From contig JAJRPF010000070.1 of the NCBI GenBank assembly GCA_024280885.1, positions 107,861-171,860 on the forward strand: a stretch of 64,000 nt of DNA. Reading direction: 5' to 3'. Made by a program: the position numbers and the translations under genes. This document shows, one piece after another, positions 7,705-52,154 of this stretch; position 1 is the first letter of the stretch, and each line of letters starts with the position of its first letter. The DNA comes from Planctomycetota bacterium (lineage in GTDB: Bacteria; Planctomycetota; JAJSAM01; JAJVHW01). Under the pieces are notes generated by a model that worked only from the letters and a program-made list of their open reading frames with translations, had not been told where the DNA came from and did not search any database.

Positions 7705-7710
7705 CCGCCG

Positions 7711-8010: not shown

Positions 8011-8106
8011 CACACCCCGGTCGACACGAACCTCGCTCCCAATCTCCTACCCTGCCTCTACCTGCCGACAGACCGCCCAGCGACCCGCTCATCCGCGAGG
8101 ACCAAG

Positions 8107-8757: not shown

Positions 8758-8993
8758 GTCTCTGGCATGTTGTCGGCGTGCCGAGACGTGCGCGGGCCGG
8801 CCCGTCGCGAGCGGACGTGGACCGGGTCCGCGCGGTCGGCGAGAAGTATCTTCCACACAGGACATCTCGGCGCGTCGCTGTAGTTGTCGCTGCGAAGTAC
8901 AGAACCCGGATGAACTCTTCGGCCCACCGACGCGTCCGAAGAATCCACCCGGGTTCAGCACTTCAGGGATAGGTCGAGTCGGAGGCACGCCCT

Positions 8994-25446: not shown

Positions 25447-26670
25447 GTGGCCGCCATGGCGCACGACTTCCTGCCCGTCGACGAGCAACTCGCGCGCATC
25501 AAGCGCGGTGCCGAGGACGTCTTTCCCGAAGACGAACTCCGCAAGAAGCTCGAGAAGAGTCGCGCGACCGGGACACCACTGCGTGTGAAACTCGGCGTCG
25601 ATCCGACGGCGCCGGATCTGACACTCGGCAACGCCGTTCCGCTGTGGAAGTTGCGCACGTTCCAGGATCTCGGACATGTCGCCGTGCTCATCATCGGCGA
25701 CTACACGGCGCAGGTGGGGGACCCATCTGGCCGCAACTCTCTGCGTCCGATGTTGACGGCGGAAGACGTCGCCGCACACGCGCAGACGTACATCGATCAA
25801 CTCGATCGCATCCTGCTGAAGGAGCGTCTCGAGATCCGCCGCAACGGCGAGTGGTTCGCCGCCATGAACTTCATGGAGGTCATGCAACTTGCGGGTCGCA
25901 TGACGGTGGCGCAGATGCTCGAGCGCGACGACTTCAACAAGCGCTACACGTCGCAGCAGCCGATCTCGGTCCACGAGTTCCTCTACCCGCTGATGCAGGG
26001 CTGGGACTCGGTCGTCATCCGTTCCGACGTCGAACTCGGTGGCTCCGACCAGCGCTTCAACCTGATCGTCGGACGCGACATGCAGCGCTCGGACGGACAG
26101 GCGCCGCAGGCGATCGTCATCAACCCGCTCGTCCCTGGCACCGACGGCGTGATCAAGATGTCGAAGAGCAAGGGCAACTACGTCGGCGTGACCGAGGCGC
26201 CATCCGAGCAATTCGGCAAGTGCATGAGCGTTCCCGACACCATGCTGCGCCCGTGGCTGACATGCTTCACCGATGTGGACGAGGCGCAGATCGACGCACT
26301 TTGTAACGGCGACAAGACGCACCCGCGCGACGCGAAGGAAGCGATGGCGAAGGGCGTCGTCACCCGCTACTGGGGCGCCGCTGCCGCAGACGAAGCCGCC
26401 GCCGGTTTCCGGCGCGTCTTCGCGCAGGGCAAGCTCCCGGACGACATGCCCGAGCTGACGATCCCGGCGGGCGGCCTGCCCCTGGTCGAAATCCTCACGT
26501 CGGAGACGCTCGCGTTCGCGAAGAGCCGCGGCGAGGCCCGTCGCCTCGTCAAGCAAGGTGGCGTCAAGATCGACGACGTGAAGCAGGACGACGCCGAAGC
26601 CATCATCGACCCGACGGACGAAGTTGTCCTGAAGGTCGGCAAGCGCCGCTTCGCGAAGCTCGTTCGCTGA
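25447..26670 (+). CDS. tyrS: Tyrosyl-tRNA synthetase
   Basis: KMSKSKGN motif and C-terminal S4 domain. Confidence 0.9.
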   Translation: MAAMAHDFLPVDEQLARIKRGAEDVFPEDELRKKLEKSRATGTPLRVKLGVDPTAPDLTLGNAVPLWKLRTFQDLGHVAVLIIGDYTAQVGDPSGRNSLRPMLTAEDVAAHAQTYIDQLDRILLKERLEIRRNGEWFAAMNFMEVMQLAGRMTVAQMLERDDFNKRYTSQQPISVHEFLYPLMQGWDSVVIRSDVELGGSDQRFNLIVGRDMQRSDGQAPQAIVINPLVPGTDGVIKMSKSKGNYVGVTEAPSEQFGKCMSVPDTMLRPWLTCFTDVDEAQIDALCNGDKTHPRDAKEAMAKGVVTRYWGAAAADEAAAGFRRVFAQGKLPDDMPELTIPAGGLPLVEILTSETLAFAKSRGEARRLVKQGGVKIDDVKQDDAEAIIDPTDEVVLKVGKRRFAKLVR

Positions 26671-26778
26671 CACAGGGTCGGGCGACGGTCGCCGAATGGC
26701 ACTTCGGCGGACCGCGCACCGAAGAAGCGTGCAAAATGACTGTCCCCGGGCGCCGGTCCGCGGCGTTCCGGGGTTGTC

Positions 26779-28341
26779 ATGAGCGATCTTCCACACACAG
26801 CCGACATCTCGATCCACGTACTTCTCGACCATCACAAGTGGGTGTTGCATCTCGCGCGAGCCCTCTCGCGGGACGATGCCTCGGCGGCGGACCTGGCGCA
26901 GGATGCGTGGGTGCGCGCCCTTGAGCGCCCTCCCGCGCACGGTGGGGCGCTGCGCGCCTGGTTCGGGACCGTCGTTCGCAACCTCGCTCGCGATCGCGCG
27001 CGATCCGCCGAGCGACGAGAACGGCGGGAGAGTGCTCCAGGCCGTGGCTCGGACTCGGGCGATGCGGCGGTTCTCGTCGCGCGGGCCGAGGCGCATGCGC
27101 GTGCCGTGGACGCGGTGGTTGCGCTGCAGGAGCCGTATCGCACGACGGTGTTGATCCATTACTTCGAGGGCGCGCCGCTCGGCGAGGTCGCCGAGCGAAT
27201 GGACGTATCCCGGGACGCGGCGAAGAAGCGGCTGCAGCGTGCGCACGTGATGTTGCGCAGAGCGCTCGACGACGCGCACGACGGCGACCGGAGAGCGTGG
27301 CTCGTACCGCTGCTTGCGGTGGGCGATTGGGGTGCGCCTCCCGTGGCGCGTACGCGACTCCGCACGGCGGCGACCGGGGTCTCGGTCGCTGTGGGCCTTG
27401 CGGTCGTCGCGACTCTCTCCTGGCGCGCTCTCGACGGACGGGAGTTCGGAGTCGATGACGGCGTTGCGTCGCCGGCGAGCGTGGCGACAGCGACCGACGC
27501 CACGATGCCCGTACCGCATGGCTCGGGTGGTCTGCAACCGGATGCGACGGCCCGGAGTGACGACGCGCGATCGGCTTCGAGGGGGCCGGGTGAAGCGGTC
27601 GGCCCGGCCGAGGTCGGCCGCGCAGAAATCTCGTACGGGTTCCGAATCGAGGACGAAGCCGGATCGCCGCTCTCAGGCGTGTCGCTCTCTGCATTCGTCG
27701 AACCCGAGAGGACCGCGTTCGACGACATCGAGGCCGTGCTCTGGGCGTCCCGGGTGATCCCCGCTCCCGACGTGACCGCGTCCACGGATGCGGGCGGGTT
27801 CGCCCGGATCGCGTGGCCCTCGAGTCCGCAGATGAGCGCGCTCGTTGTCGTGCGCCGAACCGGATTCGCGGAAGCGAGAACTCGCGTCGGGCGCAGCGAT
27901 GCGGGGCGCGGTGCTCCAGTCCGTGTTCTCACACTCGGTCGCGCTCACGTCCTGCGCGGTCGCATCGTGGGGGCCGAGGGCGTTGGTCGTTCCGACCTGG
28001 TGGTCCATGCCTCGCCGGTGCTGGGCGTCGGTGGCCTGGAGGAGTACGTTGCACGCCGGGTCGTCGAGACCTCCAGCGGCGGGTGGTTCGAGATCGAGGA
28101 CGTCGCGGCTGGCGATTGGGCAGTCTTCGTGCGCGGTCGCGACATGGTGCGGTCGCGCGTGGCGACGGTCCGTGTGCCGGACTCCGAGGCCGTGGTGATC
28201 CGGTTGTCGCGCGGAACGACCATCTCCGGCTCTCTCACCGATGCCGAGACGGGCGCTCCGCTCGCTGGCGTTAGGGTGGCGATCTTGGCGCAGACGGACG
28301 AAGCCTGGCCCATGCGAGTGCAGGGTGACCACTGCGGTTGA
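26779..28341 (+). CDS. ECF (sigma-70 family) sigma factor fused to transmembrane segment and extracytoplasmic carboxypeptidase-regulatory-like repeats, part 1
   Basis: Region 2 (DLAQDAWVRALE) and region 4 (PYRTTVLIHYFEGAPLGEVAERMDVSRDAAKKRLQRAH), then TM helix VSVAVGLAVVATLSW, then beta-repeat domains. Frame ends in the middle of a repeat. Confidence 0.6.
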   Translation: MSDLPHTADISIHVLLDHHKWVLHLARALSRDDASAADLAQDAWVRALERPPAHGGALRAWFGTVVRNLARDRARSAERRERRESAPGRGSDSGDAAVLVARAEAHARAVDAVVALQEPYRTTVLIHYFEGAPLGEVAERMDVSRDAAKKRLQRAHVMLRRALDDAHDGDRRAWLVPLLAVGDWGAPPVARTRLRTAATGVSVAVGLAVVATLSWRALDGREFGVDDGVASPASVATATDATMPVPHGSGGLQPDATARSDDARSASRGPGEAVGPAEVGRAEISYGFRIEDEAGSPLSGVSLSAFVEPERTAFDDIEAVLWASRVIPAPDVTASTDAGGFARIAWPSSPQMSALVVVRRTGFAEARTRVGRSDAGRGAPVRVLTLGRAHVLRGRIVGAEGVGRSDLVVHASPVLGVGGLEEYVARRVVETSSGGWFEIEDVAAGDWAVFVRGRDMVRSRVATVRVPDSEAVVIRLSRGTTISGSLTDAETGAPLAGVRVAILAQTDEAWPMRVQGDHCG

Positions 28342-29896
28342 CGGGAGCTATCGACATGTCACCATGGCTCCGGGACGCCTCGATGGACTGATCGCAACTC
28401 GCGATGGCTACTTCCGCGCCGAGATCGTCGGACCCCGCAGCGGCGGCCTCAGACTCCCGCCCGGAGGGTCGCGGATCCTGGACGCCGCGCTGCGTCGCGG
28501 CGGGTCGGCACGAGGGCGCGTGACCGTGGATGGTCTGCCCGCGAGCGGGGTGCGTGTGACGGCAATGCGCCCCACCCTGCCGTGGCCGCCGGTGGCCAGC
28601 GCGACGACCGGCACCGACGGCCGGTTCGAAATGCGGTCGCTTCTGGACGAAGCGCTGCATTTCTCGGCTCGTGTTCCGATGCCCGGAGGTCCCGCTCTCG
28701 TGCTGGCCCCCACAACGGGGGTGGACGCTGTTCAGATGGCGGCGGGCGCGGCGCCGCTCGAGGTCAACTTTGTCGGGACCTCCGTACCGGTGACGACGGT
28801 TGCAATCAGCGGGCGCGTCGTCGATCCGGAGGGGGCACCGATCGCCGACGCTGCGATCGGCCGGTACGGGGCGTCGTCTGCTGCCGATGGATCGTTCATG
28901 CTCATGCTCTCGCTTGCACTCCCGATCTCGAACGAGCCGCGTCAGGTCGTGATCTCCCACAGGGACTTCGCATACGCGCTTCTCGCGGTACCCGACGGGG
29001 CAAGGGATCGCGAAGACGTCGGAGAGATCGTCCTCCGGCGTCCGGCTCTGGTGCGTGGTCGCATCCTGGACTCTCGTGAGGTGCCGATCGTAGGCGCCGA
29101 TGTCTGGTTCGGTGAAGACCGCGGCGCGTCTGGCGGACCGGCGTGGACTTCGCCCGCGAGCCGCGCACCGGGACCGACGAGGACTGACGCGCGAGGCGAC
29201 TTCGAGCTCCGGCTCCCTTGGGCGTCCGGGCGCTATCGACTGCGCGCGCGCGCCGCCGGCCATGCGACCGCCGAGTCCGCGACGATCGACCATCCGGGCG
29301 CACCCACGATCCCCGTCGTCGATCTCGTCCTGCAGCCCGCCGAGGTCTTGCGCGGGAGGGTTGTGAACGCGCGGACCGGGACGCCCGTTCCGGGTGCGCG
29401 CTTGGGTCTGGTCTCACTCACGCGGTTCTCCGGCGCCAACAGCGCGGCGGCGTGGGTCCGGCAGGGCTCTCACCCGGTCGTCGCACGCACGGATGCCGGT
29501 GGAGCGTTCACGATCGGGGACCTCGATCCGGGTGGCTACGTCGTGGGGGCCCTGGCGGACGGCTACGCCTCGGCAGACGTGGCTGTGTCTGCGCCGGTCG
29601 AAGCCCCGCTCGTGTTGCGCCTTGAGCCTCTCTTCGAGATCAGTGGCACGGTGATCGCCGCCGACGGAACGTCCGCCGTAGGGGTCCGCATCCGCGCCGG
29701 CAACGGCGGCGGCCGCGAGGGAGACCGCTCTCGGGGGATCACCGACGCGAACGGCGAATTCCGCCTTCGTGGGCTGCTCTCCGGCGCGTACTCGGTCGTC
29801 GCCGTCGGTACCGGCGGCCACCTCCTCCGCGTCCCAGCGGGCACACATGACGTTCGTGTCGTCATCCCGGCGCCGGCAAACCGTGAGCACGAGTGA
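28310..29896 (+). CDS. Carboxypeptidase-regulatory-like repeat protein; probable continuation of the ECF-sigma fusion after a frameshift
   Basis: Domain pattern continues into the second frame (...RVTTAVDGSYRHVTMAPGRLDGLIATRDGYF...) with no credible independent start. Multiple repeats of the form GxVxDxxGxPxxGAxVxL...TDxxGxFxL. Confidence 0.5.
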   Translation, partial: PCECRVTTAVDGSYRHVTMAPGRLDGLIATRDGYFRAEIVGPRSGGLRLPPGGSRILDAALRRGGSARGRVTVDGLPASGVRVTAMRPTLPWPPVASATTGTDGRFEMRSLLDEALHFSARVPMPGGPALVLAPTTGVDAVQMAAGAAPLEVNFVGTSVPVTTVAISGRVVDPEGAPIADAAIGRYGASSAADGSFMLMLSLALPISNEPRQVVISHRDFAYALLAVPDGARDREDVGEIVLRRPALVRGRILDSREVPIVGADVWFGEDRGASGGPAWTSPASRAPGPTRTDARGDFELRLPWASGRYRLRARAAGHATAESATIDHPGAPTIPVVDLVLQPAEVLRGRVVNARTGTPVPGARLGLVSLTRFSGANSAAAWVRQGSHPVVARTDAGGAFTIGDLDPGGYVVGALADGYASADVAVSAPVEAPLVLRLEPLFEISGTVIAADGTSAVGVRIRAGNGGGREGDRSRGITDANGEFRLRGLLSGAYSVVAVGTGGHLLRVPAGTHDVRVVIPAPANREHE

Positions 29897-29946
29897 CGCA
29901 GCGCGTCCCGTGGCGACTTGCCCTCGCACGGGCATGCGTATAGACT

Positions 29947-30294
29947 ATGCGCATGCTGTCATCTCGTGTGCATCTTCTCCTGGAGCCGAGTGAGCGTGAG
30001 CGTTTCGTGCGTGCCGCCGATCGTTGTGGCGAGTCACTGAGTACGTGGCTGCGGCGAGCCGGTCGCGAGCGATTGGAGCGCGAGGACCGCAGCGGCGTCA
30101 TGTCGGTGTCCGAACTGCGCGCATTCTTCGCGGACTGCAATGCGCGTGACGACGGCGTGCCGGAGCCGGATTGGGACGAGCAGAAGCGCGTGATCGAGTG
30201 CTCGGTCCGCTCTGGCGCGGGCGACGCCGGAACGACTGACTCGGAGACGCCTGATGTCGCCAGCTGCGAGACGCGAGAGCGTGGCGAGTCGTGA
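29947..30294 (+). CDS. vapB: Ribbon-helix-helix antitoxin (VapB-like)
   Basis: RVHLLLEPSERERFVRAADRCGESLSTWLRRAGRERLE is RHH-like. Stop overlaps the GTG start of a PIN gene. Confidence 0.6.
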   Translation: MRMLSSRVHLLLEPSERERFVRAADRCGESLSTWLRRAGRERLEREDRSGVMSVSELRAFFADCNARDDGVPEPDWDEQKRVIECSVRSGAGDAGTTDSETPDVASCETRERGES

Positions 30295-30674
30295 TCTTCG
30301 TCGATACCAACGTGTTCATGTATGCGGTCGGCGGGAGGCACCCGTTGCGCGCGCAGGCGCAGGCGTTCTTCACCGCGAGTCAAGGACCGGGCGGCGAGCC
30401 GCTGTGTACGTCTGCCGAGGTGCTCCAGGAACTGCTGCACGCGTATCTGGCGGTCGGGCGGACAAGCACTCTCGACGACGCGCTGCGTCTCGCGCGCAGC
30501 ACGATGGGCGAGGTCTTCGCGATCGAGGCCGACGACGTGCTCTTCGCTCGTGATCTGAACACATCTCTCCCGGGCCTGAGCGCGCGCGATCTCCTGCACG
30601 TCGCGACTTGCCGTCGCCGTGGGATCGACTCCGTCAAGACCTACGATCGCGCGCTGGCCGCCATTTTCGCGTAG
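30291..30674 (+). CDS. vapC: PIN-domain toxin VapC
   Basis: MIFVDTNVFMYA start with downstream acidic residues. Confidence 0.85.
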   Translation: MIFVDTNVFMYAVGGRHPLRAQAQAFFTASQGPGGEPLCTSAEVLQELLHAYLAVGRTSTLDDALRLARSTMGEVFAIEADDVLFARDLNTSLPGLSARDLLHVATCRRRGIDSVKTYDRALAAIFA

Positions 30675-30830
30675 TCGGGTTTGGGCCCAAGACCTGTCCT
30701 CGGCGTCGATGACGAGTCGTCGCCCATGCGTCCCGCCGCCGCTGACGGTTGGAGTCGGGACTCCGTACGCTTCCGCGTGATCGTCGACTTCGATCTGGCT
30801 CCGCGTTGCGTTCTCTGGTGACCTGCGTGC

Positions 30831-31904
30831 GTGCAGCGTGACTCTCGTCTCGATTCCCTGCGAGGGCTCGCCCTGGTCGTCATGACCGCGGTGCATCTGC
30901 CGTACTCGACACACCCATGGTTTTCCGGGTGGCTGGGGCTCGCCACGTTCGCACACGTCTTTGTCTTCCTGTCCGGGTTCGTGGCGGGGATGGTCTACGA
31001 GCACCGCGCGCCCGAGATGACGGATGCCGACGTGTGGCGGAAGACACTGAGGCGGGCTGGCGGAATCTGGGTGGCCAATGTCGTCGTGACAGCGCTCATG
31101 GCCGTGTACTTGACGTCGCTCGATCGAGTTGGCGTGTCGTACACCCCCTACGGTGCACAATTCCTCCACGCGCGACCGGTGCTCGGTGTCGGGCTCGCCG
31201 CCGCGATGATCTACCTCCCCGGATACACGCACATCCTGGCGATGTATGTGTTCTTTGTCGCGACGCTCGCGCCCGCGGTGATCGGGATCCGGCGGCGGCG
31301 AACCTGGCTCGTGCTCGGGGCGAGCGTCGCGCTCTGGGGTGCCGCCCAGGCAGGGCTACGTGATGTCTTCGAGTCCGAACTGCAGAAGCACGTACACACC
31401 CGCCTCGGTCATTTCGATGTGCTGGGGTGGCAGCTGCTCTTCATCGCGGGCGTTGTCCTCGGAGCCCTGCGGCAGCGGGGAGCCCTGAAGGCGATTCGCG
31501 TCTCCCTTCCGGTCGCGATCCCGACGCTGGCGGTACACGCTGTGCTGACCGCCATTCGCCACGGCTGGCGACCGGACTCGGAACTGTCCATCGTCGTCCA
31601 TCAGGTCGCAGACAACAACGTGCTCGGGCCGCTGCGCGTGTTCGATTTTGCCCTCGTCGCAATGCTCGGCGCAGACCTCATGCGCCGCTGGCCGCGCGCG
31701 ACATCGATCGGCGCTCTCTCCCTGCTCGGACGTCATTCGATGGCGGTCTTCATCTACCACATCGTGTTGGTGTACGCGGTCACGCCCTTCACTCTGCCCG
31801 CGTGGTTCCACGTGCCCGCGACAGTCGCTGCACTCACGAGCCTGGCGTTGCCCGCGTACTGGGCCGAGCGCCGCCGGGATGCGCGGCGTCTCCTCATGCA
31901 ATGA
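30831..31904 (+). CDS. Acyltransferase-3 / OpgC-like membrane protein
   Basis: RLDSLRGLALVVMTAVH start and ~10 TM helices. Confidence 0.65.
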   Translation: MQRDSRLDSLRGLALVVMTAVHLPYSTHPWFSGWLGLATFAHVFVFLSGFVAGMVYEHRAPEMTDADVWRKTLRRAGGIWVANVVVTALMAVYLTSLDRVGVSYTPYGAQFLHARPVLGVGLAAAMIYLPGYTHILAMYVFFVATLAPAVIGIRRRRTWLVLGASVALWGAAQAGLRDVFESELQKHVHTRLGHFDVLGWQLLFIAGVVLGALRQRGALKAIRVSLPVAIPTLAVHAVLTAIRHGWRPDSELSIVVHQVADNNVLGPLRVFDFALVAMLGADLMRRWPRATSIGALSLLGRHSMAVFIYHIVLVYAVTPFTLPAWFHVPATVAALTSLALPAYWAERRRDARRLLMQ

Positions 31905-31989
31905 CCGGTGTCGACGCGCGGCGATGTCTCAATCCGCCGACGGGCGCATTCCCGGTTCGTGCCGTCGCGAGCGCGCCGCGTCCCACCGC

Positions 31990-32949
31990 TCAGAGCTGGG
32001 CGAAGCGGACGGCGCGGCGCAGGGTCTTGGCGCCCATCAGGAGTGCGGCCGTTGCGAGGACGAGCGTGCCCACCTGGTCGAGGAAGGCGTTCACGGGCTC
32101 GCGAAACGCTTTCAGTTCTTCGAGTTCCGGTACCTGCATGAGCGGGTCGCCGTTCAGGAGGTAGAGCATCAGGATGACCCCGAGGAAGCCGTGGATCGCG
32201 TCAGCGGCAACCGGAATGCGTCGTTCGCCGAGCGCCGTGTAGAGCAGGTCTTTTCCAGCTGCCAGCACGAAGAGGCCGGTCACGAGCGAGACGACGCTCG
32301 CCGACCAGTTTGTGAAGAGCGGATAGGCGCGACCGCCGCTGATCACGACGAAGACGTCGTCGCGAAAGACGGTAATGAGCATCGCGAAGAGCAGCGCGAG
32401 GACCGCGCGCCCGAGGGCATGCCGTCTGCGGGCCTCGACCGCGAACGACGACGAAGCCGCCGTGAGAGGTCCGGCGAACGCGCCGCTGACCCCGTAGACC
32501 GCGGTCACGAGACCCAGGTCGACCAAACCGGCATGGACAGCGGCTGCGACGAGACTGAGGAGACCGTTCGGTCCGACCGGTGCGATCTCGAAGAGCCCGA
32601 CGTGAAACGGGCGCGAGAGCGCGGTGGCAATTCCGATCAGAATGAGATGCACGATGAGCACGAGGCCGGTATGGAAGAGGAAGGCGCGGAACGCCTCGGG
32701 GGCGACCAGGTAACGGGCCGGGGTGTAGGACGCTGCAATGGTCTCGGGCGCGCCGATCTCGTCGATCGCGCGTCGGATCAATGCGTCGTCAACCGCGCCC
32801 TGATCCCCCTCGGCGAGGCGGTCGGCGCGGTCGAGAACGGCCCCCTCGAGCTCCATGAGGATGTCTTTGGCGTCGCGCAGCGGGAGGTGCGGGCGCACCT
32901 TCCCCAGGAACTCACGAAGAGCGGGACTCCGGGTCTGCGTCTGCACCAT
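31990..32949 (-). CDS. DUF1700-like (HAAS) membrane protein, PadR partner
   Basis: N-terminal ...LREFLGKVRPHLPLRDAKDILMELEGAVLDRADRLAEGD... followed by multiple TM helices. Immediately downstream of PadR. Confidence 0.55.
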   Translation of the reverse strand: MVQTQTRSPALREFLGKVRPHLPLRDAKDILMELEGAVLDRADRLAEGDQGAVDDALIRRAIDEIGAPETIAASYTPARYLVAPEAFRAFLFHTGLVLIVHLILIGIATALSRPFHVGLFEIAPVGPNGLLSLVAAAVHAGLVDLGLVTAVYGVSGAFAGPLTAASSSFAVEARRRHALGRAVLALLFAMLITVFRDDVFVVISGGRAYPLFTNWSASVVSLVTGLFVLAAGKDLLYTALGERRIPVAADAIHGFLGVILMLYLLNGDPLMQVPELEELKAFREPVNAFLDQVGTLVLATAALLMGAKTLRRAVRFAQL

Positions 32950-33421: not shown

Positions 33422-34900
33422 ATGACCGCTCCCATGAGACTCCTTCGCACTGCCGCCGCCGCTCTCCTGCTCTTCGCCGCGTGTGGCGTGGCGCGGGCGG
33501 ATCTCGATGCCGAGGCGCTGCTGCGTGAGCTCGGGGCCGACTCGGCCCACGTTCGGCGACGATCGCGGCTCCGATTGGAGATGGCGGACGACGTGACGTC
33601 CGCCGCAGTGGTGGCAGCGCTCGTCGCCGCGCGCGCTGGAGACCACCCGGACGCGATCCCGGAGTTGCTCGCGCTGGCTGGCGCGCGCGGGTTCACCGCG
33701 GTGGGGGATGTCGCTGTCAACATTGCGCAGGACGAGGATCCGATTCTCGCCGAGGCGGCGCTGCGATGTCTCGTCATGCTGGGGCCGGATCACGCCCGGA
33801 GCGGGATCGCGGCTCTCGGAGTCGCGCGGCCGGACTCCGGTGTCGCGACGACCACTCTCTCTGCGTCGATCGTTGGGGCCCGTCGGGATCGACTGCAAGC
33901 ACTTGCGATTCAGGACGCCGTCGAGCTGGATCTCTTCCAGCGCTGGCGACGCAAGGGCGGCACGTACGAGGGGCGTTTCGCGTTGCTGAAGCGCCACGGG
34001 TGGGCCGCGCAGCCGGTGCTCTTCGCGATGCTGCTCGACGTGCCGCTCGAGGATCGCTTCCTCGCGCTTCCCGAGGACCGCGAGCCCTCGCTCGGGGAGC
34101 GCTTCATCGTCCTGCGCGAGATCCTGCGCTCCCATCGTCGCGGTTACCGAACGTTCCGGCAGTTACCGCGGGATCTGAACGCCGACGACCTCTTCGACCT
34201 CTCAGCGCAGGCGTTGATGGACGTCGCAGACATGGACGTGCTCGGCGATGTCCTCGATGCCATCGCACAGACGCTCGAGAACGCACACGATCGCTACCGC
34301 TGGAACATCGGGTTTCAGTTGCGTCCGTGGGAGGACAGCTACGCCGAGGTTCTCGGTGAGATCCTCGCGGCGCACGATCGCAAGGAACGGCTCGCACGAC
34401 GCGCAGAGCGCATCGAAACCGCAGCGCGTGACTCGCGGCGGATCGCGATGCGCGTCCCGAAGGAGCTGCGGGCCCGAGCCCTGTTCTCGTACGCGCGCGA
34501 TCTCACTGACCTGGCGGGCGTGCTGCACCGCATGCGCGAGTTCGACCGCGCTGCCGCCGTGTACGCCGAGTCCATTCGCGTCTCGACGGAGCTCGGTGGC
34601 GAGGCACCGACGATCGCTGCCTACAATCGCGCGTGTGCTCTGGCGCGGGCGGGGCATGTCGATGACGCTCTCAAGCAACTGGACGTCGCGCTCCAATCCG
34701 ATCTCACGGACCTCCGGCGCGGGTGGGTCGAGGAGGACGGAGATCTGCGTACTCTCCGCGACGATGCGCGCTTCCAGGAGATCCTCGATCGACACTTCGG
34801 ACGTGAGAGCGGAAGTGCGAGCGGGGCGGCAGACACGGACTCGCCGGCGCCAGCTGCGGACGGTGGCGGCGGCACGTCAGGATCGCAGTCGGGCGAGTAG
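33422..34900 (+). CDS. Secreted alpha-helical repeat (HEAT/TPR-like) hypothetical protein
   Basis: Signal peptide MRLLRTAAAALLLFAACGVARA. Remainder helical and Arg/Asp/Leu-rich but not shadow-like. Confidence 0.55.
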   Translation: MTAPMRLLRTAAAALLLFAACGVARADLDAEALLRELGADSAHVRRRSRLRLEMADDVTSAAVVAALVAARAGDHPDAIPELLALAGARGFTAVGDVAVNIAQDEDPILAEAALRCLVMLGPDHARSGIAALGVARPDSGVATTTLSASIVGARRDRLQALAIQDAVELDLFQRWRRKGGTYEGRFALLKRHGWAAQPVLFAMLLDVPLEDRFLALPEDREPSLGERFIVLREILRSHRRGYRTFRQLPRDLNADDLFDLSAQALMDVADMDVLGDVLDAIAQTLENAHDRYRWNIGFQLRPWEDSYAEVLGEILAAHDRKERLARRAERIETAARDSRRIAMRVPKELRARALFSYARDLTDLAGVLHRMREFDRAAAVYAESIRVSTELGGEAPTIAAYNRACALARAGHVDDALKQLDVALQSDLTDLRRGWVEEDGDLRTLRDDARFQEILDRHFGRESGSASGAADTDSPAPAADGGGGTSGSQSGE

Positions 34901-35773
34901 GAAGCGCAACCCGACGTAGACGAGGATCAACCAGAAACCTGCGTCGTACCACGTGGCTCCCATCAGCCACGCAGCGTCCACCAGCAGGAAGCCGAACACG
35001 GCCCGTCGGATGAGAGCGCCCAGTCCCGGTCCGTCCGGGATCTGCGCATCGCGCGCGCCAGAGACGAGCGTCGCGGCGAGCGCGAAGAGCGGCAGTGCGG
35101 GCGCCCACCACCAGCGCGCGGCGAAGAGCGGCCACGCGAGTGCAGCGGGAAGGATGAGGATCAGGGCCAGGCCGCCCGCGAGAACGGCGGTCGGCCTGCG
35201 CTCCTCGAATGTGCTCGCATACGTGAGGAGCACTGTGTAGCCGCCGACGGCGATCGGATAGGCGAGCGCGCCCGGACTGGGAGCGCCCAGCGCCACCTCA
35301 ACCGTGAGGGCCGACGCGAGCATCCCGGCCGCCGCATTGGATGCCCGTGCGCCGCCCATCAGCAACGACCCGGGTACGCGCCAGCGCTTCCCGCCGATGT
35401 CGTAGAGGAGCGCGCAGAGAGCGGCCGCGCCCATGGCGACGCCCGCGGCAGGTCCGGCCATGGCGAGTGCGACGAGGGGCCCCGCAACGAGGAGCCCGAG
35501 CCCGAGTGCGATGGCGGTCGCGCGCGTGACGTCGCCCGCCGGGATCGGGCGCCCCGGATGCAACGCGCGGTCGCGCTCTGCGTCGCAAGCGTCGTTCAGT
35601 ACCACGCCGCCGAGATAGACGAGGACGGCCGAACTGGCGATTGCGGCCGCTGCCAATCGCGTGCCGTCCCCGCCGGCCCTGCGCACGAGCAGGAAGCCCG
35701 TCACGGCGTTCGCGGCCGCGGTCAGCGCCCCGGGCCAGCGCAGGAGTCGAAGACAGCCCGTGAGCGTGGACAT
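34877..35773 (-). CDS. UbiA-family prenyltransferase
   Basis: NDACDAERD (NDxxDxxxD) and polytopic membrane character. Confidence 0.75.
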   Translation of the reverse strand: MSTLTGCLRLLRWPGALTAAANAVTGFLLVRRAGGDGTRLAAAAIASSAVLVYLGGVVLNDACDAERDRALHPGRPIPAGDVTRATAIALGLGLLVAGPLVALAMAGPAAGVAMGAAALCALLYDIGGKRWRVPGSLLMGGARASNAAAGMLASALTVEVALGAPSPGALAYPIAVGGYTVLLTYASTFEERRPTAVLAGGLALILILPAALAWPLFAARWWWAPALPLFALAATLVSGARDAQIPDGPGLGALIRRAVFGFLLVDAAWLMGATWYDAGFWLILVYVGLRFLLARLRS

Positions 35774-35783
35774 GAAGGTCCTT

Positions 35784-37622
35784 CTACAGCCTGGAGAGAT
35801 CGTTCGCGACGACGAAGACCATCAGTGTGAGCAGCAGGATGAGGCCCGCCCATTGCAGCCCCTCCTGCACGATGCTCGGCAGTGGGCGGCCGCGGATGCG
35901 CTCGGCGGTGTACATGGCAAGTTGTCCGCCGTCGAGCATCGGGATCGGCAGCACGTTCAGGACCGCGAGGTTCATGCTGATGAAGCCGAGGAAGAGCAGG
36001 AACTGCCCCAGTCCGGACTCGGCCTGGCTGTATGTAGCCTGCGCGATGGCGATCGGTCCAGCGAGGTTCTTGGGACTGACTCGGCCTGTGAAGAGTGACG
36101 ACAGCGTCGTGAGGATGCGGCCGACCCAACGCTGTGTCCGGCGCATCCCGAGTGCCACCGCGGCGACCACGTCGGTCTCCTGCACGATTGTCATGCGCTG
36201 GCCGACGCGCATGCCTGGGTCGGCGCGGGACTCCACTGTCACCGGCGCGATGTCGGCCGCGTGCTCCGTCCCGTCCTGGTCCACCCAGCGTACGTTCAGG
36301 GCGCGTGCGTCCTCGCCTGCGGCTTTGACAGCGGCAACCAACTCCGGCAGCCCGTCGATCGAGTCGCCGTCGGCTTCGACGATCTGCGAGCCGGCCTTGA
36401 TGCCGGCAGCGTGAGCAGGGCCCGTCGCCTGCCCGTCGAGACTCGGTGAGACGATCAGGCCGCTGGTCCGATCGGGCGCGAGCGAGGCGACGAATGCCGC
36501 CGCGTCAGCGCCGATCGCGATTTCCACTGTGGCGCCGTCGCGCTCGACCGCGCACGTGGATGCACCCGTGGATGCAGCCGTGGACCCATCGGTGCCGCGC
36601 TTGTCGCCCGTGATGCGCGCGACGAACTCCGACACCGTGGTGACGGCTTGACCGTCAACGGTGACGGGGCGGTCCCCACGTTGCAGGCCTGCCCGCGCCG
36701 CGACGCCGTCTCGTCGCACTGCGCCGATCCGCAACGCATCGTGCAGGACACCGATCAGGTACGTGTCCTGCATCGGCGACGTGACGGAGACGTCGATGCG
36801 CTCGCCATCGCGCTCCACGGTGAACACACCGGAGTCCTTGGCGTCGTAGAGTGCGAGAGCCGCGCGCGCCGATGTGACCGGTGCGCCGTCGAAGAGGACG
36901 ACGTGGTCGCGGTCCTCGAGACCCGCCTCCTCCGCCACGGAATCCGGAACGATCCGTACAGAGGGGGAGTTGTCGAACGCCGGGCCGACACCGATGCGGC
37001 GCAGGCCGCCGCTCGCCTCCTGCGTCTCGATACGCATGACCGGCAGCAGCTCGCCGTTGCGTCGGATCTCGACATCGACGACCTCGACGAGAGCTACGTC
37101 CTGCACGACATCTCGAAACTCGATGATCTCCTTGCCGTCGAGCGTGACGATCTCGTCGTCGGGCAGAATGCCGTGTTCCCACGCGGGCGCGCCGGGCATG
37201 ACCGTTCCGACGATGGGCGCGGGCAGGTCCACGCCGATCGAGAAGGTCCACACGAAGAGCAGGAACGCGACGAGCACGTTCATCGCGACGCCTGCGAGCA
37301 GGATCGCGGCCTTGCGTGGATACGTAGCGGACTGGAACGAGTCGGGTGCCGGCTCGGCCTCTTCATCGGGGTTCTCGCCGAGAAATTTGACGTAGCCGCC
37401 AAGGGGGATCGGCGCCAGTCGGTACTCCGTGGCGCCAGGCGTCCACTTGAGGAGCGCTGGCCCGAAGCCGATCGAGAAGATCTCGGCTCGGACGCCACAC
37501 CAGCGCCCGACGAGGAAGTGCCCGAGCTCGTGCACGAAGATCAACCCGCCGATTCCGAAGATCGTCTTCAAGACGTTCAGCACGGGGTCGAGGGAATCGA
37601 GGGCCGCCAGAACCGTCAGCAC
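35784..37622 (-). CDS. rseP: RIP zinc metalloprotease RseP (site-2 protease, multi-PDZ)
   Basis: HELGHFLV, PDZ domains, C-terminal LDGG. Confidence 0.85.
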   Translation of the reverse strand: MLTVLAALDSLDPVLNVLKTIFGIGGLIFVHELGHFLVGRWCGVRAEIFSIGFGPALLKWTPGATEYRLAPIPLGGYVKFLGENPDEEAEPAPDSFQSATYPRKAAILLAGVAMNVLVAFLLFVWTFSIGVDLPAPIVGTVMPGAPAWEHGILPDDEIVTLDGKEIIEFRDVVQDVALVEVVDVEIRRNGELLPVMRIETQEASGGLRRIGVGPAFDNSPSVRIVPDSVAEEAGLEDRDHVVLFDGAPVTSARAALALYDAKDSGVFTVERDGERIDVSVTSPMQDTYLIGVLHDALRIGAVRRDGVAARAGLQRGDRPVTVDGQAVTTVSEFVARITGDKRGTDGSTAASTGASTCAVERDGATVEIAIGADAAAFVASLAPDRTSGLIVSPSLDGQATGPAHAAGIKAGSQIVEADGDSIDGLPELVAAVKAAGEDARALNVRWVDQDGTEHAADIAPVTVESRADPGMRVGQRMTIVQETDVVAAVALGMRRTQRWVGRILTTLSSLFTGRVSPKNLAGPIAIAQATYSQAESGLGQFLLFLGFISMNLAVLNVLPIPMLDGGQLAMYTAERIRGRPLPSIVQEGLQWAGLILLLTLMVFVVANDLSRL

Positions 37623-38773
37623 GTGTGTACCTCCAGGCGCGCCGCAGCATCGGCGGCGCGTAACTCGTCGAGCGTCGCGGCGGTCGCCACGTCGCCCTCG
37701 GGACAGAGACTGTCCATCGTTCGGCGAACGCGTTCCACGATCTCCGTGAATGCGATCTTGCCGCTCAGGAACAACTCGACTGCGACCTCGTCAGCCGCGT
37801 TCATCACGGCGCCCGCGATCCCGCCCGAGCGTGCCGCGCGATAGCCGAGCGCAAGTGCCGGATAGCGCTCGGGATCGACCGCGCGGAAGCTCAACTCTGC
37901 GTAGTCACCGAGCGAGAAGCGCACTGCGTCGTACTCCGGTCGATCCGGGTACGCGAGCGCGAAGAGCACGGGCAGCCGCATGTCAGGCCGACTCATCTGT
38001 GCCATCACGCTGCCGTCCCGGAATTCCACCATGGAGTGGACGATTGACTGCCGGTGGATGAGCACGTCAATCCGCTCGGGCGGCACGTCGAAGAGGACGT
38101 GGGCCTCGGCGACTTCGAGCGCCTTGTTCATCATCGTGGCCGAGTCGACCGTGATCCGAGGCCCCATACTCCAGGTCGGATGGCGGAGCGCCTCGTCCGG
38201 CGTTGCTGCGGCGAGCGACTCAAGCGGTCGGTCGCGAAAGGAGCCGCCACTGGCGGTCAGGATGATTCGTTCGACCTCGGATGGACGCCCCGAGCGCAAG
38301 CACTGGAAGATGGCGGAGTGCTCACTGTCCACGGGGACCACCGTCGAGCCATGGCGCGCTGCGAGGTCCATCAGCAGTGGCCCTGCGACGACGAGGCTCT
38401 CCTTGTTCGCGAGACCGACGACGACGCCGCGTTCGAGCGCAGCCAGCGTCGTCTGAAGCGCCGCCGCACCTACGGTCGCCTGCACGATGACGTCCACGTC
38501 GACGCGACGCACCAGTTCCAGCGCCGCTCCGGCTCCCCCGAGCACCTCGATGTCGGTGCCGGCGAGCAACTCGCGCGCCCGTGCGGCCGCCGCCTCGTCC
38601 TCCAACGCGATGATCCGTGCGCCGTGCGTGCGGGCCTGCTCCGCCAGTGCAACGGCGCTCGACCGAGCCGCCAATGCGACGACCTCGAAGCGCTCCGGTA
38701 GGCTCCGGGCGACGTCAAGGGTGCTCTTTCCGACGGAGCCGGTGGAGCCGAGCAGGAGGACGCGTCGTTTCAT
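37616..38773 (-). CDS. dxr: 1-deoxy-D-xylulose 5-phosphate reductoisomerase
   Basis: LGSTGSVG, LANKESLV and DSEHSAIFQ motifs. Confidence 0.9.
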   Translation of the reverse strand: MKRRVLLLGSTGSVGKSTLDVARSLPERFEVVALAARSSAVALAEQARTHGARIIALEDEAAAARARELLAGTDIEVLGGAGAALELVRRVDVDVIVQATVGAAALQTTLAALERGVVVGLANKESLVVAGPLLMDLAARHGSTVVPVDSEHSAIFQCLRSGRPSEVERIILTASGGSFRDRPLESLAAATPDEALRHPTWSMGPRITVDSATMMNKALEVAEAHVLFDVPPERIDVLIHRQSIVHSMVEFRDGSVMAQMSRPDMRLPVLFALAYPDRPEYDAVRFSLGDYAELSFRAVDPERYPALALGYRAARSGGIAGAVMNAADEVAVELFLSGKIAFTEIVERVRRTMDSLCPEGDVATAATLDELRAADAAARLEVHTC

Positions 38774-38960
38774 GCAGGAAGGTGGTCCGGCGAGGGTCGA
38801 ATGCAGGTCGGCGAGGGTGGGGGATGGCTCGGTGGCCAGAGATCGCGGACAGCCGGCGACCCGGGAGCCGGGCGAGGATAGCGGCGCCGCGCGAGCCCGG
38901 CCCTCTTTGGCGGAGCCGCGATCACGAGGATCTGCACGGCGATCTGTGCGATGCGATGGC

Positions 38961-39473
38961 TCAGTCGCGGCGCTTCGCGAGCGCGGTGACCACCCGCGCG
39001 CCGGGGTGCAGCAGGAGCGCCTGCGGTGCGACGAGGATCTTCGACGTGCGCCCGCCGGTCCCCACGATCACGCGCTCCGGGGCCATGACGGCCTCGTCGA
39101 TCAGGAGTGGCAGCTCAGCCGGGAGTGCGAATGGCGTGACGCCTCCGATCTCCATGCCTGTCACCTGGCGCATGTCATCGGCCGAGGCGAACGAGACCTT
39201 TCCGGCCCCGAGTTCGTGCCTGACAGCGCGATTGACATCGAGACGTGTCGTCGCGAGCGCAAGGCATGCAGCGAAGACCCTGGGCTTCTTCTTCGACGCG
39301 ACGACGAGCGCGTTCGCCGAGATCTCGAGTGGGTAGCCGTAGTGGGCGCAGAAGGCCGCGGTATCCGCCAGGGCGGGGTCGCACGGTATGCGTTCGAAGG
39401 GGATGTCATGCGCGGCGAGGTGGGCCAGGACGCGGGCTTCGGTGGGATGGGCTTCGATGGGATCAGTACTCAC
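38961..39473 (-). CDS. ybaK: YbaK/ProX-type aminoacyl-tRNA deacylase
   Basis: Clean 170-aa region from a GTG at 39473 (...KKKPRVFAACLALATTRLDVNR...GMEIGGVTPF...). Upstream part of the track ORF is shadow. Confidence 0.65.
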   Translation of the reverse strand: MSTDPIEAHPTEARVLAHLAAHDIPFERIPCDPALADTAAFCAHYGYPLEISANALVVASKKKPRVFAACLALATTRLDVNRAVRHELGAGKVSFASADDMRQVTGMEIGGVTPFALPAELPLLIDEAVMAPERVIVGTGGRTSKILVAPQALLLHPGARVVTALAKRRD

Positions 39474-39678
39474 AGCGACGAGGATGCCCGAGGGCCCGCT
39501 GCACGCGAGAGACTTCGCGGCGATCGCAGGCGGCGAGGTCGTCCCCGTCGTGCTGCCGACGGTCGGGGCTCTCGACCGGTCACGCGCTGTCCCGCCGCGC
39601 CCCCGTCGGCTCGGCGGGTGCCTCTCGCGCAGAAGCCGGGTTCCCGGATACGCTCTGGCGAGTCCAAGGGAGCCGTGC

Positions 39679-41004
39679 ATGCGCAGATATTCGACCAAGA
39701 GGGCCCGGGGCCGGAGGCTCCGGCAACGGGTGTGCGGCGTCCTCGTGACTGTTGCCGCCGCGGCAGCGCCGGGGTTCGCAGCCGAGGCCGCGGATGCGGA
39801 GGTCATCGCGATCCGCGGCGCGACCGTGATGACGGCTGGCCCGGCGGGCACACTCGAGAACGCGACCGTCATCGTGCGTGCCGGGAAGATAGCGGCTGTC
39901 GGGCTCGACGTCGCCGTCCCGGATGGTGCGACGATCGTCGATGCCGCCGGGCGCTATCTCTTGCCGGGCATCATCGATACGCACTCGCACATGGGGGTGT
40001 ACCCGTGGCCCGGGAGCAAGAGCAACGCCGACGGCAACGAGATGACGTCGCCGATCACGCCCGAGGTACGCGCCGAGGACTCCGTGTATCTGCAGGACCC
40101 CGCCTTCGCACGGGCCCGAGCGGGAGGCGTCACCACTGTCATGATCCTGCCGGGCAGCGGCAATCTGATCGGCGGTGAGGGAGTCACGCTGAAGTTGCGC
40201 CCCGTCGAGACGCTTGCCGGTCTCAAGTTCGCGGGCGCACCGCGCAACATGAAAATGGCGTCAGGCGAGAACCCGAAGCGTGTGTACGGCGGGCGCAATC
40301 AGGCGCCGAGCACGCGCATGGGATCGGCCGCGTTCTTGCGTCGCGTGTTCACCGAAGCGCGTGAGTACGGCGCCAAGTGGACGCGCCACCGCGAGAAGAC
40401 CGCGCGCGCGACGGAAGACGGCAAGGACCTGCCGGATCCACCCGACGTCGATCTTCGCAAGCAGGCGCTGCTCGACATGCTCGAGGGGCGCGTGCAGGTG
40501 CATCTGCACGGCTACACGGTCAGTGATTACACGTCGTACCTGCGCGTCTTCGACGAGTTCGGAATCCGCCCGCGCGCGTTTCATCACGCCCTCGAAGCGT
40601 ACAAGATGCGCGACGAGCTGGCGCGGCGCGGGATCGGCGTCTCGACGTGGGCCGACTGGTGGGGGTTCAAGGTCGAGGCGTACGACGGTATCCCTCACAA
40701 CGCTGGGCTGTGCGCCGCGGCCGGTGTACGCGTCGCGTTGCACTCGGACAGCGCCGAGGGAATTCAGCGGCTCTTCGTCGAGGCGGCGAAATGCGTGCGC
40801 TTTGGGATGACGGAGGAGGACGCGATCAAGGCATTGACCATCAACCCGGCTTGGCAGATCGGCGTGCATGAGCGCGTCGGCTCGATCGAGGTCGGCAAGG
40901 ACGCGGATCTCGCACTCTTCTCGAAGCATCCGTTCGACATCACGACACGCGTCGATGGCACGTGGATCGATGGCGTGCGCGTCTTCACACGGGAGGGGCG
41001 CTGA
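39679..41004 (+). CDS. Amidohydrolase-family metallohydrolase, secreted (paralog 1)
   Basis: Signal peptide. LLPGIIDTHSHMG metal-binding motif, HSD and DAD motifs. Confidence 0.8.
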   Translation: MRRYSTKRARGRRLRQRVCGVLVTVAAAAAPGFAAEAADAEVIAIRGATVMTAGPAGTLENATVIVRAGKIAAVGLDVAVPDGATIVDAAGRYLLPGIIDTHSHMGVYPWPGSKSNADGNEMTSPITPEVRAEDSVYLQDPAFARARAGGVTTVMILPGSGNLIGGEGVTLKLRPVETLAGLKFAGAPRNMKMASGENPKRVYGGRNQAPSTRMGSAAFLRRVFTEAREYGAKWTRHREKTARATEDGKDLPDPPDVDLRKQALLDMLEGRVQVHLHGYTVSDYTSYLRVFDEFGIRPRAFHHALEAYKMRDELARRGIGVSTWADWWGFKVEAYDGIPHNAGLCAAAGVRVALHSDSAEGIQRLFVEAAKCVRFGMTEEDAIKALTINPAWQIGVHERVGSIEVGKDADLALFSKHPFDITTRVDGTWIDGVRVFTREGR

Positions 41005-41005
41005 T

Positions 41006-42301
41006 ATGCGTGCGACGACACGGATCCTCGCAGCGTTGGCGATCGCTTGCTCGACAACGGTCGCAATCGCTCAGGAGGTGACCGTCATCTCCGGCGGTCG
41101 CGTTGTCCCCATCGTCGGGGAGCCGATCGATGATGGCGTTGTCGTGATCCGCGGGGCGAAGATCGCGTTCGTCGGCGCGGCGGGTTCGTTTGACCTCCCC
41201 GCTGGCGCGACCGTCGTGGACGCCGCGGGACGGATCGTCATGCCCGGCCTGATTGATGCATTCACGCACGTCGGAACGCGCGAAATCGGCGCCGTGAAAG
41301 TGACACGCGACGACGACGAGGCCACGTCGCCGATGACGCCCGCGGTTCATACGGCCGACGCCCTCAACGTGTCGTCTTCGCACTTTCGCGTGACGCGCAT
41401 GAACGGGACGACGACGGTGCTCGTCGCCCCGGCTCCCGGCAATCTGATCTCGGGTCGTTCGTGTGTCATCGCTCTTGATGGCGAGAGCGTCGATGCCATG
41501 CTGCGTCTGCCGCATGCAGCGTTGCACGCGTCGCTCGGCGATCCACCCAAGTTGCGCTACGGAGAGAAGAACCAGGCGCCGGCCACACGCATGGGCGAGA
41601 TGGCGATGTTGCGCGCGGCCGTGACGAAGGCGCGAGAGTACGTCGCGAAGTGGGCCCGGTTCGAGGAGCAGCAGCGTCGCTCGATGGAGGACGGCGAGGA
41701 GCAGCCCGATCCCCCGAGTCGGGATCTCGATCTCGAAGCGTGGCGGCCCATTCTATCGCGCGAGCGACCACTCATCGTGCGCGCGCAGCGACTCTCCGAC
41801 GTGCAGGCCGCGCTGCGCTTCGCTCGCGAATTCGACGTCCGGATCGCACTCTTCGGTGGGGCAGAGGCGTGGAAGGTCGCTGACGAGATCGCCGCGGCTG
41901 GAGTCCCGGTGTTACTCGGAACGGTGACCACACAACCGTCGTCGCACGAGACGCTCGCCGCGCGCATGGATGCGGCGCAGATCCTCGAAGCGGCGGGCGT
42001 GGAATTGGTCATCGTCTCGGCAGCCGCCCACAACGCGCGTCGCCTGCCTTCTCTCGCGGGCATTGCGATGAGTTATGGGTTGCCGGCAGACGCCGCGCTC
42101 GAAGCGCTCACGATCCGCCCGGCACGCGTGCTCGGCCTGGCGGATCGGATCGGATCGCTGACCGTCGGCAAGGATGCCGACGTCATCATTCTCGATGGTG
42201 ACGTCGTGCAACCGCGCACGCGGGTCACGCATATGTGGATCCGGGGCAAGCGCGTCGTGTTGACGTCGCGTCAGACCGAACTCGCCGAGAAGTACAAGTA
42301 G
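41006..42301 (+). CDS. Amidohydrolase-family metallohydrolase, secreted (paralog 2)
   Basis: Signal peptide. [12 protein letters not shown] motif. Start 1 nt after the paralog-1 stop. Confidence 0.8.
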
Positions 42302-42330
42302 CGCGGCACGTCTGCGCCGACGGAGAGAGC

Positions 42331-42750
42331 ATGCCGCCGCCATTCCATCTCGCGTTTCCGGTGGACGATCTCAACGCTGCGCGCGCCTTCTACGGAGGGC
42401 TTCTCGGCTGCGCCGAAGGGCGCGCGTCGGAGGCGTGGATCGACTTCGACTTCGAGGGACATCAGATCGTCGCGCATCTCGTGCCGGGGCAGAGCGGCGA
42501 CGCCGGCAACAACCCGGTCGACGGGCACGGCGTCCCGGTCCCACATTTTGGTCTCGTGCTCGCGTGGGGTGCATGGGAGGCACTTGCGGAGCGGCTTCGC
42601 TCGGCCGGGCATGCGTTCGTGATCGAGCCCTACGTGCGCTTCGTGGGCGAGGTGGGGGAGCAGGGCACGTTCTTCGTTCGCGACCCCGCGGGGAACGCCC
42701 TCGAGTTCAAGGCGTTCCGCGATCCGGAGCAACTCTTCGCGCGGTGGTGA
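42331..42750 (+). CDS. VOC (glyoxalase/bleomycin-resistance/dioxygenase) family protein
   Basis: [27 protein letters not shown] ... GNALEFKAF. Confidence 0.7.
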
Positions 42751-52039: not shown

Positions 52040-52154
52040 ACTCGTTCGGCCGCAACCTGGCGCGGGCGATCGGCGCGCTGCTGCGGCAGGTGATGCGCGA
52101 CAGATGTCTGGTTCCGCTTCCCGCGCGGGTTCGCCCGCGTCGCGGTGACCCGCG

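Follow-up and report, generated by a model that had tools for sequence, protein, structure and literature searches.

The 64-kb stretch of DNA analysed here (hereafter the window, in whose positions all coordinates are given) carries at 26779..29896, entirely on the + strand, a single gene with a broken reading frame. Its intact product, of about 1036 amino acids (aa), is a single-pass, membrane-anchored sigma factor of the extracytoplasmic function (ECF) type, in which the domains are ordered as sigma region 2, sigma region 4, a juxtamembrane helix, a transmembrane (TM) helix, a disordered linker and eight beta-sandwich domains. The 5' part of the gene is an open reading frame (ORF) of 520 aa in frame 1 (ORF1, 26779..28341, +), which begins with the ATG at 26779 and is closed prematurely by the TGA at 28339-28341, its C-terminal end reading ...AILAQTDEAWPMRVQGDHCG before the stop. 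The remainder continues in frame 2 (28322..29896, +), where the rest of domain 3 and domains 4 to 8, of the CarboxypepD_reg type, are encoded up to the TGA at 29894-29896. Frame 2 is open from 28199 to its stop at 29896, that is, for 566 codons without a stop, and reads ...CECRVTTAVDGSYRHVTMAPGRLDGLIATRDGYF... A previous reading of the locus made from the letters and their translations (the sequence-only reading) had described a frame-broken chain of about 1040 aa uniting an ECF sigma factor, a TM helix and CarboxypepD_reg repeats, and both the Pfam results and the closest homolog, protein P0001, agree with that description.

The sigma-factor part was recognized by several models. In the Pfam search of ORF1, Sigma70_r2 (PF04542) matched aa 17-79 (26827..27015, +) with an E-value of 7.3e-12 and 45.3 bits, the cut-off being 24, and Sigma70_r4_2 (PF08281) matched aa 111-155 with an E-value of 9.3e-7 and 28.8 bits (cut-off 25.7). 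With the additional match to PF04545, region 4 spans aa 111-165 (27109..27273, +). No match to Sigma70_r3 or to region 1 was obtained in ORF1 with Pfam. The NCBIfam model TIGR02937 (sigma70-ECF) reached 53.3 bits against a cut-off of 42.9, while the narrower NCBIfam sigma subfamily and equivalog models all stayed far below theirs, the best of them being PRK09645 (56.7 vs 202). An AlphaFold2 model of ORF1, computed from an alignment of 68 sequences and with a mean predicted local distance difference test (pLDDT) score of 77, folded the sigma part into two helical bundles (aa 12-85 and 96-166; pLDDT 90-98), with values of 90-98 in region 2 and of 94-98 in the region 4 helices at aa 120-166. Its nearest structures in the PDB according to Foldseek were the ECF sigma factors SigL, SigH, RpoE, SigW and AlgU, and phmmer was in agreement. 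Membership in the ECF (group 4) sigma-70 factors is thereby established: regions 2 and 4 are present, regions 1.1 and 3 are missing and the linker is short. The sequence-only reading had placed sigma-70 regions 2 and 4 in residues 1-170, and the hidden Markov models of both regions, once run, matched there.

The sigma part is followed by a single TM helix (27340..27435, +), modelled by AlphaFold2 at aa 188-219, whose hydrophobic core at aa 196-214 has a mean Kyte-Doolittle value of 1.74 across 19 residues. Almost every one of the ~88 sigma-bearing homologs described below has a hydrophobic segment at aa ~185-235 as well. Three Arg residues precede the helix and acidic residues follow it, from which it follows that the N-terminus is inside, the sigma part being cytoplasmic and the repeats lying outside. 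The topology that had been suggested for this protein was thus recovered, with one TM helix, a positive-inside charge pattern and an N-in orientation. Beyond the helix comes a low-complexity linker predicted to be disordered (27436..27624, +; aa 220-282), with a pLDDT below 50 in the AlphaFold2 model and 22% identity to P0001.

Between sigma region 4 and the TM helix there are only ~30 residues (aa 165 to 196). They contain most of a conserved juxtamembrane segment, L-D-x-x-H-G-G-D-R-R-A-W-x-x-x-L (27268..27321, +; aa 164-181), which is helical at aa 171-181 in the AlphaFold2 model. Among 68 family members, L163 was conserved in 63, R171 in 52, W174 in 58 and L178 in 48, and downstream of the motif P187 was kept in 52/68 and G200 in 57/68. 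A motif of the HGGDRRAW type was present in about half of 93 homologs, and within the family conservation is higher in the stretch from sigma region 4 to the TM helix than in the TM helix itself or in the linker. The juxtamembrane segment matched no known domain. Neither a zf-HC2/ZAS nor a FecR or RskA domain was found in ORF1 (Pfam, E <= 0.1), and the precomputed Pfam lists of the 93 homologs did not include any anti-sigma domain. It must be noted that a segment of ~30 residues is too short to hold one. The sequence-only reading had called the architecture sigma/anti-sigma-like; the single chain, the TM helix and the extracytoplasmic part stand, whereas the anti-sigma half of the expression does not, and it is only loosely right because the sigma factor is tethered directly to the TM helix across this short gap.

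The outer part of the protein is a stalk of eight tandem transthyretin-like (CarboxypepD_reg) beta-sandwich domains, six of which are detectable with Pfam. Domains 1 and 2 (27625..28212, +; aa 283-478) were missed by Pfam and were modelled by AlphaFold2 as all-beta folds at aa 283-375 and 382-475, with a pLDDT mostly of 85-97. The N-terminal third of domain 3 (28213..28325, +) is encoded in frame 1, where aa 481-506 match positions 1-25 or 1-26 of the 82 positions of the CarboxypepD_reg model, and the confidence of the ORF1 model falls to 40 at this truncated end. The observation made earlier that frame 1 stops inside a repeat is supported by this match, which at the end of ORF1 covers model positions 1-25 of 82. 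In frame 2, Pfam PF13620 (CarboxypepD_reg) was found in five stretches with an E-value of 2.9e-38 and 130.5 bits, the threshold being 32.3. These five stretches, the domain at the junction and the two cryptic domains make up the eight of the intact protein. In Foldseek searches against the PDB, the outer part resembled tandem beta-sandwich stalks such as those of Gram-positive pilins, the B repeats of SdrD and S-layer proteins.

That both frames belong to one gene follows from the completeness of the joined domain 3, the collinearity of P0001 with the joined product and the single ORFs that encode the homologs. Peptides of 101 residues that switched from frame 1 to frame 2 at varied codons were scored against CarboxypepD_reg. 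Junctions from 28285 to 28323 gave one match covering positions 1-81 of the 82 of the model, with 31.8-35.0 bits; frame 1 alone gave 21 bits over model positions 1-26, and the first 73 residues of frame 2 alone gave no match. The score was 29.4 bits with the junction at 28327 and lowest, 25.1 bits, with the shift at the stop codon. P0001, the closest homolog (1034 aa; E-value 2e-203), aligns over 99% of the joined 1036-aa query and runs through the junction in one frame, the frame-2 part matching its residues ~505-1032. In addition, ~88 more proteins of 670-1500 aa, the majority of them from Planctomycetota and Myxococcota, carry sigma regions 2 and 4 and, mostly, CarboxypepD_reg in one chain. 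In the genome and metagenome collections searched, a protein of the sigma-TM-repeat kind was encoded by one long ORF at 82 loci, mostly in metagenome-assembled genomes (MAGs) of Planctomycetota and some in Myxococcota. The family is multi-copy in Planctomycetota, as illustrated by four loci on one contig of the MAG CAVXOA01. The comparison with orthologs that had been proposed for the locus therefore has a clear outcome, P0001 and the 82 homologous loci all being in a single frame.

These data also bear on the possibility that two independent genes are present, one for a 520-aa sigma-TM protein and another, with its own start, for a secreted repeat protein of 551 aa. An ATG does exist in frame 2 at 28241, and a few family members are short (294-473 aa), both of which would suit such an arrangement. 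However, the ATGs at 28241 and 28364 are the sole in-frame starts of frame 2 and both fall within a domain, the first of them inside the CarboxypepD_reg match of frame 1. No signal peptide was found after either one (28241 is followed by MPRRALRSLALGWRSWRRR...), and 28241 has no Shine-Dalgarno sequence. An independent second gene starting at these intradomain ATGs without a signal peptide is not credible, and the sequence-only reading was justified in stating that the +1 frame carries on the domain pattern, here in five CarboxypepD_reg stretches, with no plausible start. Furthermore, ORF1 stops 26 residues into a domain of 82, the first 73 residues of frame 2 do not form a recognizable domain by themselves and P0001 spans the junction as one chain. 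The two-gene arrangement is effectively refuted by the collinearity of P0001 together with the junction scan. An annotation of 26779..29896 should give one frameshifted gene and not a sigma factor followed by a hypothetical protein.

The break lies in the interval 28285..28325 (+) and amounts to a net gain of 1 nt, through the insertion of 1 or 4 nt or the loss of 2 nt. It had been located near 28310 in the sequence-only reading; the break itself is confirmed, but it can be placed only within ~28285-28325. The domain score was tried as a means of pinpointing the indel and was discarded, as the junctions from 28285 to 28323 were all within 3 bits of each other. Two candidate lesions can be indicated. 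An extra G in the GGG at 28323-28325 gives the best domain score when removed. The other is the tandem GACGGACG at 28293-28300, in which dropping one copy restores the frame and brings K-P-G-P into register with the E-P-G-P of P0001. Nevertheless, a tandem 4-mer is expected by chance 0.22 times per 45 nt, and this tandem is therefore not evidence. The longest homopolymer in 28285-28325 has 3 nt. Neither a prfB-like CUU UGA C nor any other slippery site was found in the overlap of the two frames, the sole copy of CTTTGAC in the window being at 36323. The codon ahead of the TGA is GGT, which is unable to re-pair at +1, and local RNA folding was no better than that of shuffled sequences (z = -0.95).

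The genomic context of the gene is a lineage-specific insertion of ~5.3 kb (26671..31992) located between tyrS and hyp318/PadR, which contains the sigma gene, a vapBC-like pair and an OpgC-like acyltransferase gene (30831..31904; OpgC_C of Pfam, E-value 1e-49). The vapBC-like pair (29947..30674, +) consists of an antitoxin-like ORF of 115 aa (29947..30294), which had only weak matches, NikA-like and Rv0623-like (E-value ~0.004), and a PIN toxin gene (30291..30674; PF01850, E-value 8.3e-16) that overlaps it by 4 nt. The PIN match and the small overlapping ORF upstream of it agree with the vapBC pair that had been recognized directly downstream of the sigma gene; the pair is a neighbour in the same insertion and not a part of that gene. 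Another toxin-antitoxin-like pair was recognized by eye at 7432-8010 (+), with a 90-aa ORF of ribbon-helix-helix/ParD-like N-terminus (MASRTTLNVSLTPELGRFIE...) and a ParE/RelE-like ORF of 99 aa that starts 7 nt after it.

Relatives of the window were found by a search with its TyrRS, which returned a 100% identical protein (P0094) encoded on a 276-kb NCBI contig, named matches at 54-64% identity that belong to Planctomycetota, and five loci (L160-L164) whose TyrRS is 76-82% identical. The gene order in L160, L161 and L162 was rpsA, a hypothetical gene, tyrS, hyp318 (-), PadR (-), a gene for a tetratricopeptide repeat (TPR) protein and ubiA (-), followed by rseP (-) and dxr (-) where the contig extends far enough. 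L164 has the same tyrS-hyp318-PadR junction, and in L163 a different small gene (DUF6624) comes after tyrS. The genes that are syntenic in the relatives are all present and intact in the window. The sigma gene is not present at all in the five relatives, and since the insertion between tyrS and hyp318 is not found in them either, it is an accessory gene that is specific to its lineage and located at a variable site. The region downstream of tyrS looks like a variable hotspot and a plausible place for gene decay. There were no convincing flanking repeats, no integrase and no tRNA at the 5.3-kb insertion, and no match to a sigma-70 promoter or to a terminator was found within 26500-30400. A conserved housekeeping block at 34877-39067 (-) comprises a ubiA-like prenyltransferase gene, rseP (Peptidase_M50 and PDZ domains) and dxr. 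The RseP homolog is encoded at 35787..37622 and is likely the site-2 protease for any sigma or anti-sigma factor tethered to the membrane in this host.

Other members of the family are also split, and the best documented case is a paralog known from three loci, which represent two alleles. The locus L090 has an intact ORF of 1029 aa (5914-9003) that is 99.9% identical to a split allele, whereas in L089 (at 7343) and L091 one CG of a (CG)6 run is missing, which splits them after ~476 codons. These two loci, each from a different metagenome, are 11 single-nucleotide polymorphisms apart and are 99.6-99.9% identical to L090. With respect to L090 they show a plain 2-nt deletion, which is a natural truncation polymorphism or possibly a slippage-prone site. 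Among the remaining cases, L017 is split at ~8700-8860 in the linker, which has G7, C6 and G6 runs; L025 upstream of 8630, in the linker or before the TM helix; and L043 at ~9466, in the C-terminal domain. In L089 the split falls in domain 2-3. The five split cases, including that of the window, are all in the +1 direction, which is suggestive, the chance of this being ~1 in 16.

In our opinion the break is probably real: a recent, non-programmed small indel that has turned the gene into a young pseudogene or into a truncated 520-aa allele. The junction interval contains no homopolymer longer than 3 nt, and the ~30 further ORFs of the window that were checked with Pfam or against the relatives are all intact. 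The gene is an accessory one, and the 5.3-kb insertion that holds it together with the toxin-antitoxin pair is missing from the five relatives. Truncated alleles of a paralog occur in two independent metagenomes (L089 and L091). Should the frameshift be genuine, the protein of 520 aa would end in a misfolded partial domain and could be degraded or constitutively processed. The sigma part is 70% identical to P0001, and the outside domains are 43% (98/227) identical to it upstream of the break and 40% (207/518) downstream. This lack of decay on either side, with no stop in 566 codons, indicates that the lesion is either very young or not real, and the second option must be considered seriously. 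An error of sequencing or assembly, by which an intact 1036-aa gene would have acquired extra base(s) at 28285-28325 only in the consensus, is a substantial possibility, although we do not give it preference. Several facts speak for it and weigh against a genuine mutation. An error would equally explain why nothing has decayed downstream of the break; both halves are fully preserved; and the best-scoring repair takes one G out of a GGG run. Moreover, the source appears to be a MAG, all the relatives are MAGs and several other family members from MAGs are split, L025 being from a hybrid long-read assembly. Finally, no homolog closer than P0001 (43% identity) appeared in two scans of genome contigs and one of metagenomes. 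On the contrary, the short homopolymers of the interval, the absence of any further broken gene among the ~30 ORFs checked in the 64 kb, the existence of real truncated alleles in the sigma-TM-repeat family and the accessory nature of the gene within a variable insertion are arguments against an error.

The third option left by the sequence-only reading, programmed +1 frameshifting, or else a phase-variable switch, giving either the 520-aa protein or the full 1036-aa protein, deserves far less credit. It would be in accordance with the +1 direction shared by all the split members (the window, L017, L025, L043 and L089/L091) and with the position of the L089/L091 change in a (CG)5-6 run, a sequence type capable of slippage. 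Nonetheless, five of five in the same direction has the chance probability given above, the break sites differ among the split members, and the orthologue P0001 and more than 80 homologs are in a single frame. At the junction there is no slippery heptamer, no prfB-type site with a Shine-Dalgarno element and no repeat tract beyond the two-copy 4-mer, RNA structure does not exceed that of shuffles, and a shift at the stop codon yields the worst domain score. Programmed frameshifting is thus very unlikely, given that there is no slippery site and no unusual RNA structure and that the shift is not conserved, and the locus is unsuitable as an example of recoding. Of the three options originally proposed, a real mutation and an error both stand, the former being preferred.

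As regards the rest of the window, same-strand overlapping ORF pairs were examined as candidates for other broken genes and proved to be separate intact genes. A signalling cluster at 52094-56449 (+) comprises, side by side, a GAF-SpoIIE (PP2C) phosphatase, a stand-alone response-regulator receiver and a PAS histidine kinase. Two tandem amidohydrolase genes and a glyoxalase-family gene are found at 39343-42747. The only Rfam/ARAGORN match in the 64-kb window is a tRNA-Val (GAC) at 48598-48674 (-).

The architecture of the intact protein suggests a way in which it might work. Its sigma domain would be kept at the membrane by its own TM helix until a signal, perhaps an envelope or surface cue, acted on the outside stalk and led to a site-1 cut. 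Intramembrane cleavage by the site-2 protease RseP would then follow, and the freed sigma domain would bind RNA polymerase and serve a putative regulon, as shown for IutY and as proposed for the ECF52 protein SCO4117. We regard this release by regulated intramembrane proteolysis as a reasonable, still tentative, proposal. Three observations count against it. IutY and ECF52 carry an anti-sigma domain after sigma region 4 and ahead of the TM helix, which this protein lacks. The nearness of rseP is not evidence either, because this gene belongs to a conserved housekeeping neighbourhood and also occurs in relatives without the sigma gene. In addition, no ECF-type bipartite promoter was shared upstream of 81 family genes, in which only GC-rich noise was found. 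A competing mechanism is that the sigma factor acts, or is controlled, while membrane-bound, by means of the conserved juxtamembrane helix. Whichever of them applies, the locus draws attention to a sizeable family, in Planctomycetota and Myxococcota, of ECF sigma factors that are anchored in the membrane, have no anti-sigma domain, share a strongly conserved juxtamembrane motif and bear on the outer side of the cell membrane a rod built of beta-sandwiches. Learning how such a factor is switched on, by IutY-like release or otherwise, would add to the modes of ECF regulation described so far. The roles of the HGGDRRAW helix and of the eight-domain stalk are questions for the family as a whole and are of more interest than its broken copy.

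Sigma factors with membrane-spanning C-terminal extensions, including the variable ones of planctomycetes, have already been described (PMC7671368, PMC7826278, PMC8999054). It has been reported that ECFs with C-terminal extensions have no separate anti-sigma factor, the extension replacing it (PMC7826278). Around the 82 family loci there was no conserved neighbour gene, the best cluster being present in 7 loci and in mixed orientation, and the resulting lack of a conserved neighbouring anti-sigma gene fits that rule. Within this group, IutY (ECF243) of Pseudomonas putida, a sigma/anti-sigma hybrid that serves in cell-surface signalling, is the best functional model, and one with experimental support, for the way in which the intact protein could work and for the effect that its truncation could have. 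Like the protein of the window, IutY combines in one chain an N-terminal ECF sigma factor, a single TM helix and a periplasmic C-terminal part. It is released sequentially by Prc and RseP, and its C-terminal truncation makes it signal-independent (PMC8999054, PMC5411451). However, IutY is equipped with an anti-sigma domain of the FecR type, placed between its sigma domain and the TM helix, and with a periplasmic FecR domain, and it has a TonB-dependent receptor as partner, in place of which the protein of the window has the ~30-residue HGGDRRAW helix, eight beta-sandwich repeats outside and no conserved partner gene.

The groups ECF48, ECF52 (SCO4117) and ECF53, for which proteolytic activation has been predicted (PMC8999054, PMC5411451, PMC5826349), are similar in their long extension with a TM helix (one or two in their case), in their extracytoplasmic module, which in those groups often binds carbohydrate, and in the lack of a separate anti-sigma gene. 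They differ in having a zinc finger (ZAS-like) before the TM segment, a proline-rich region and a carbohydrate-binding domain outside, and in being restricted to Actinobacteria, whereas the protein of the window has no zinc finger and its family belongs to Planctomycetota and Myxococcota. Assignment to the sigma/anti-sigma fusions of the IutY or ECF52 type fails on the anti-sigma domain that defines them.

The closest likeness in taxonomic terms is with the planctomycete ECF sigma factors with variable C-terminal extensions described by Pinto et al. 2020 (PMC7671368), which have a conserved core, divergent extensions with diverse Pfam domains and no conserved context, and with ECF57, a multi-copy group of planctomycetes (Casas-Pastor et al. 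2021, PMC7826278). They share with the present protein the phylum, the many paralogs, the conserved sigma core, a poorly conserved extension of variable length and the lack of a conserved gene neighbourhood. ECF57 is characterized by WD40-like repeats and by two conserved cysteines that link sigma2 and sigma4 (PMC8999054). The protein of the window contains no Cys in aa 1-170 and has no WD40 match, and thus it is not a member of ECF57. In the literature searched, no paper ties CarboxypepD_reg repeats to the extensions of sigma factors. It could be speculated that the arrangement sigma-TM-(CarboxypepD_reg)n forms a distinct class of one-chain sigma factors, controlled through the HGGDRRAW helix and a stalk of an estimated ~30 nm that probes the envelope, in which +1 alleles such as the present one and those of L089 and L091 would act as heritable on/off switches, but we consider this unlikely. 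With respect to its lesion, the gene does not differ from ordinary frameshift pseudogenes and split genes, in which one small indel likewise gives rise to two overlapping frames, and nothing distinguishes the case of the window from them. In comparison with the systems described so far, the gene is an ECF sigma factor with a membrane-spanning C-terminal extension, of a kind already known, that carries an ordinary frameshift.

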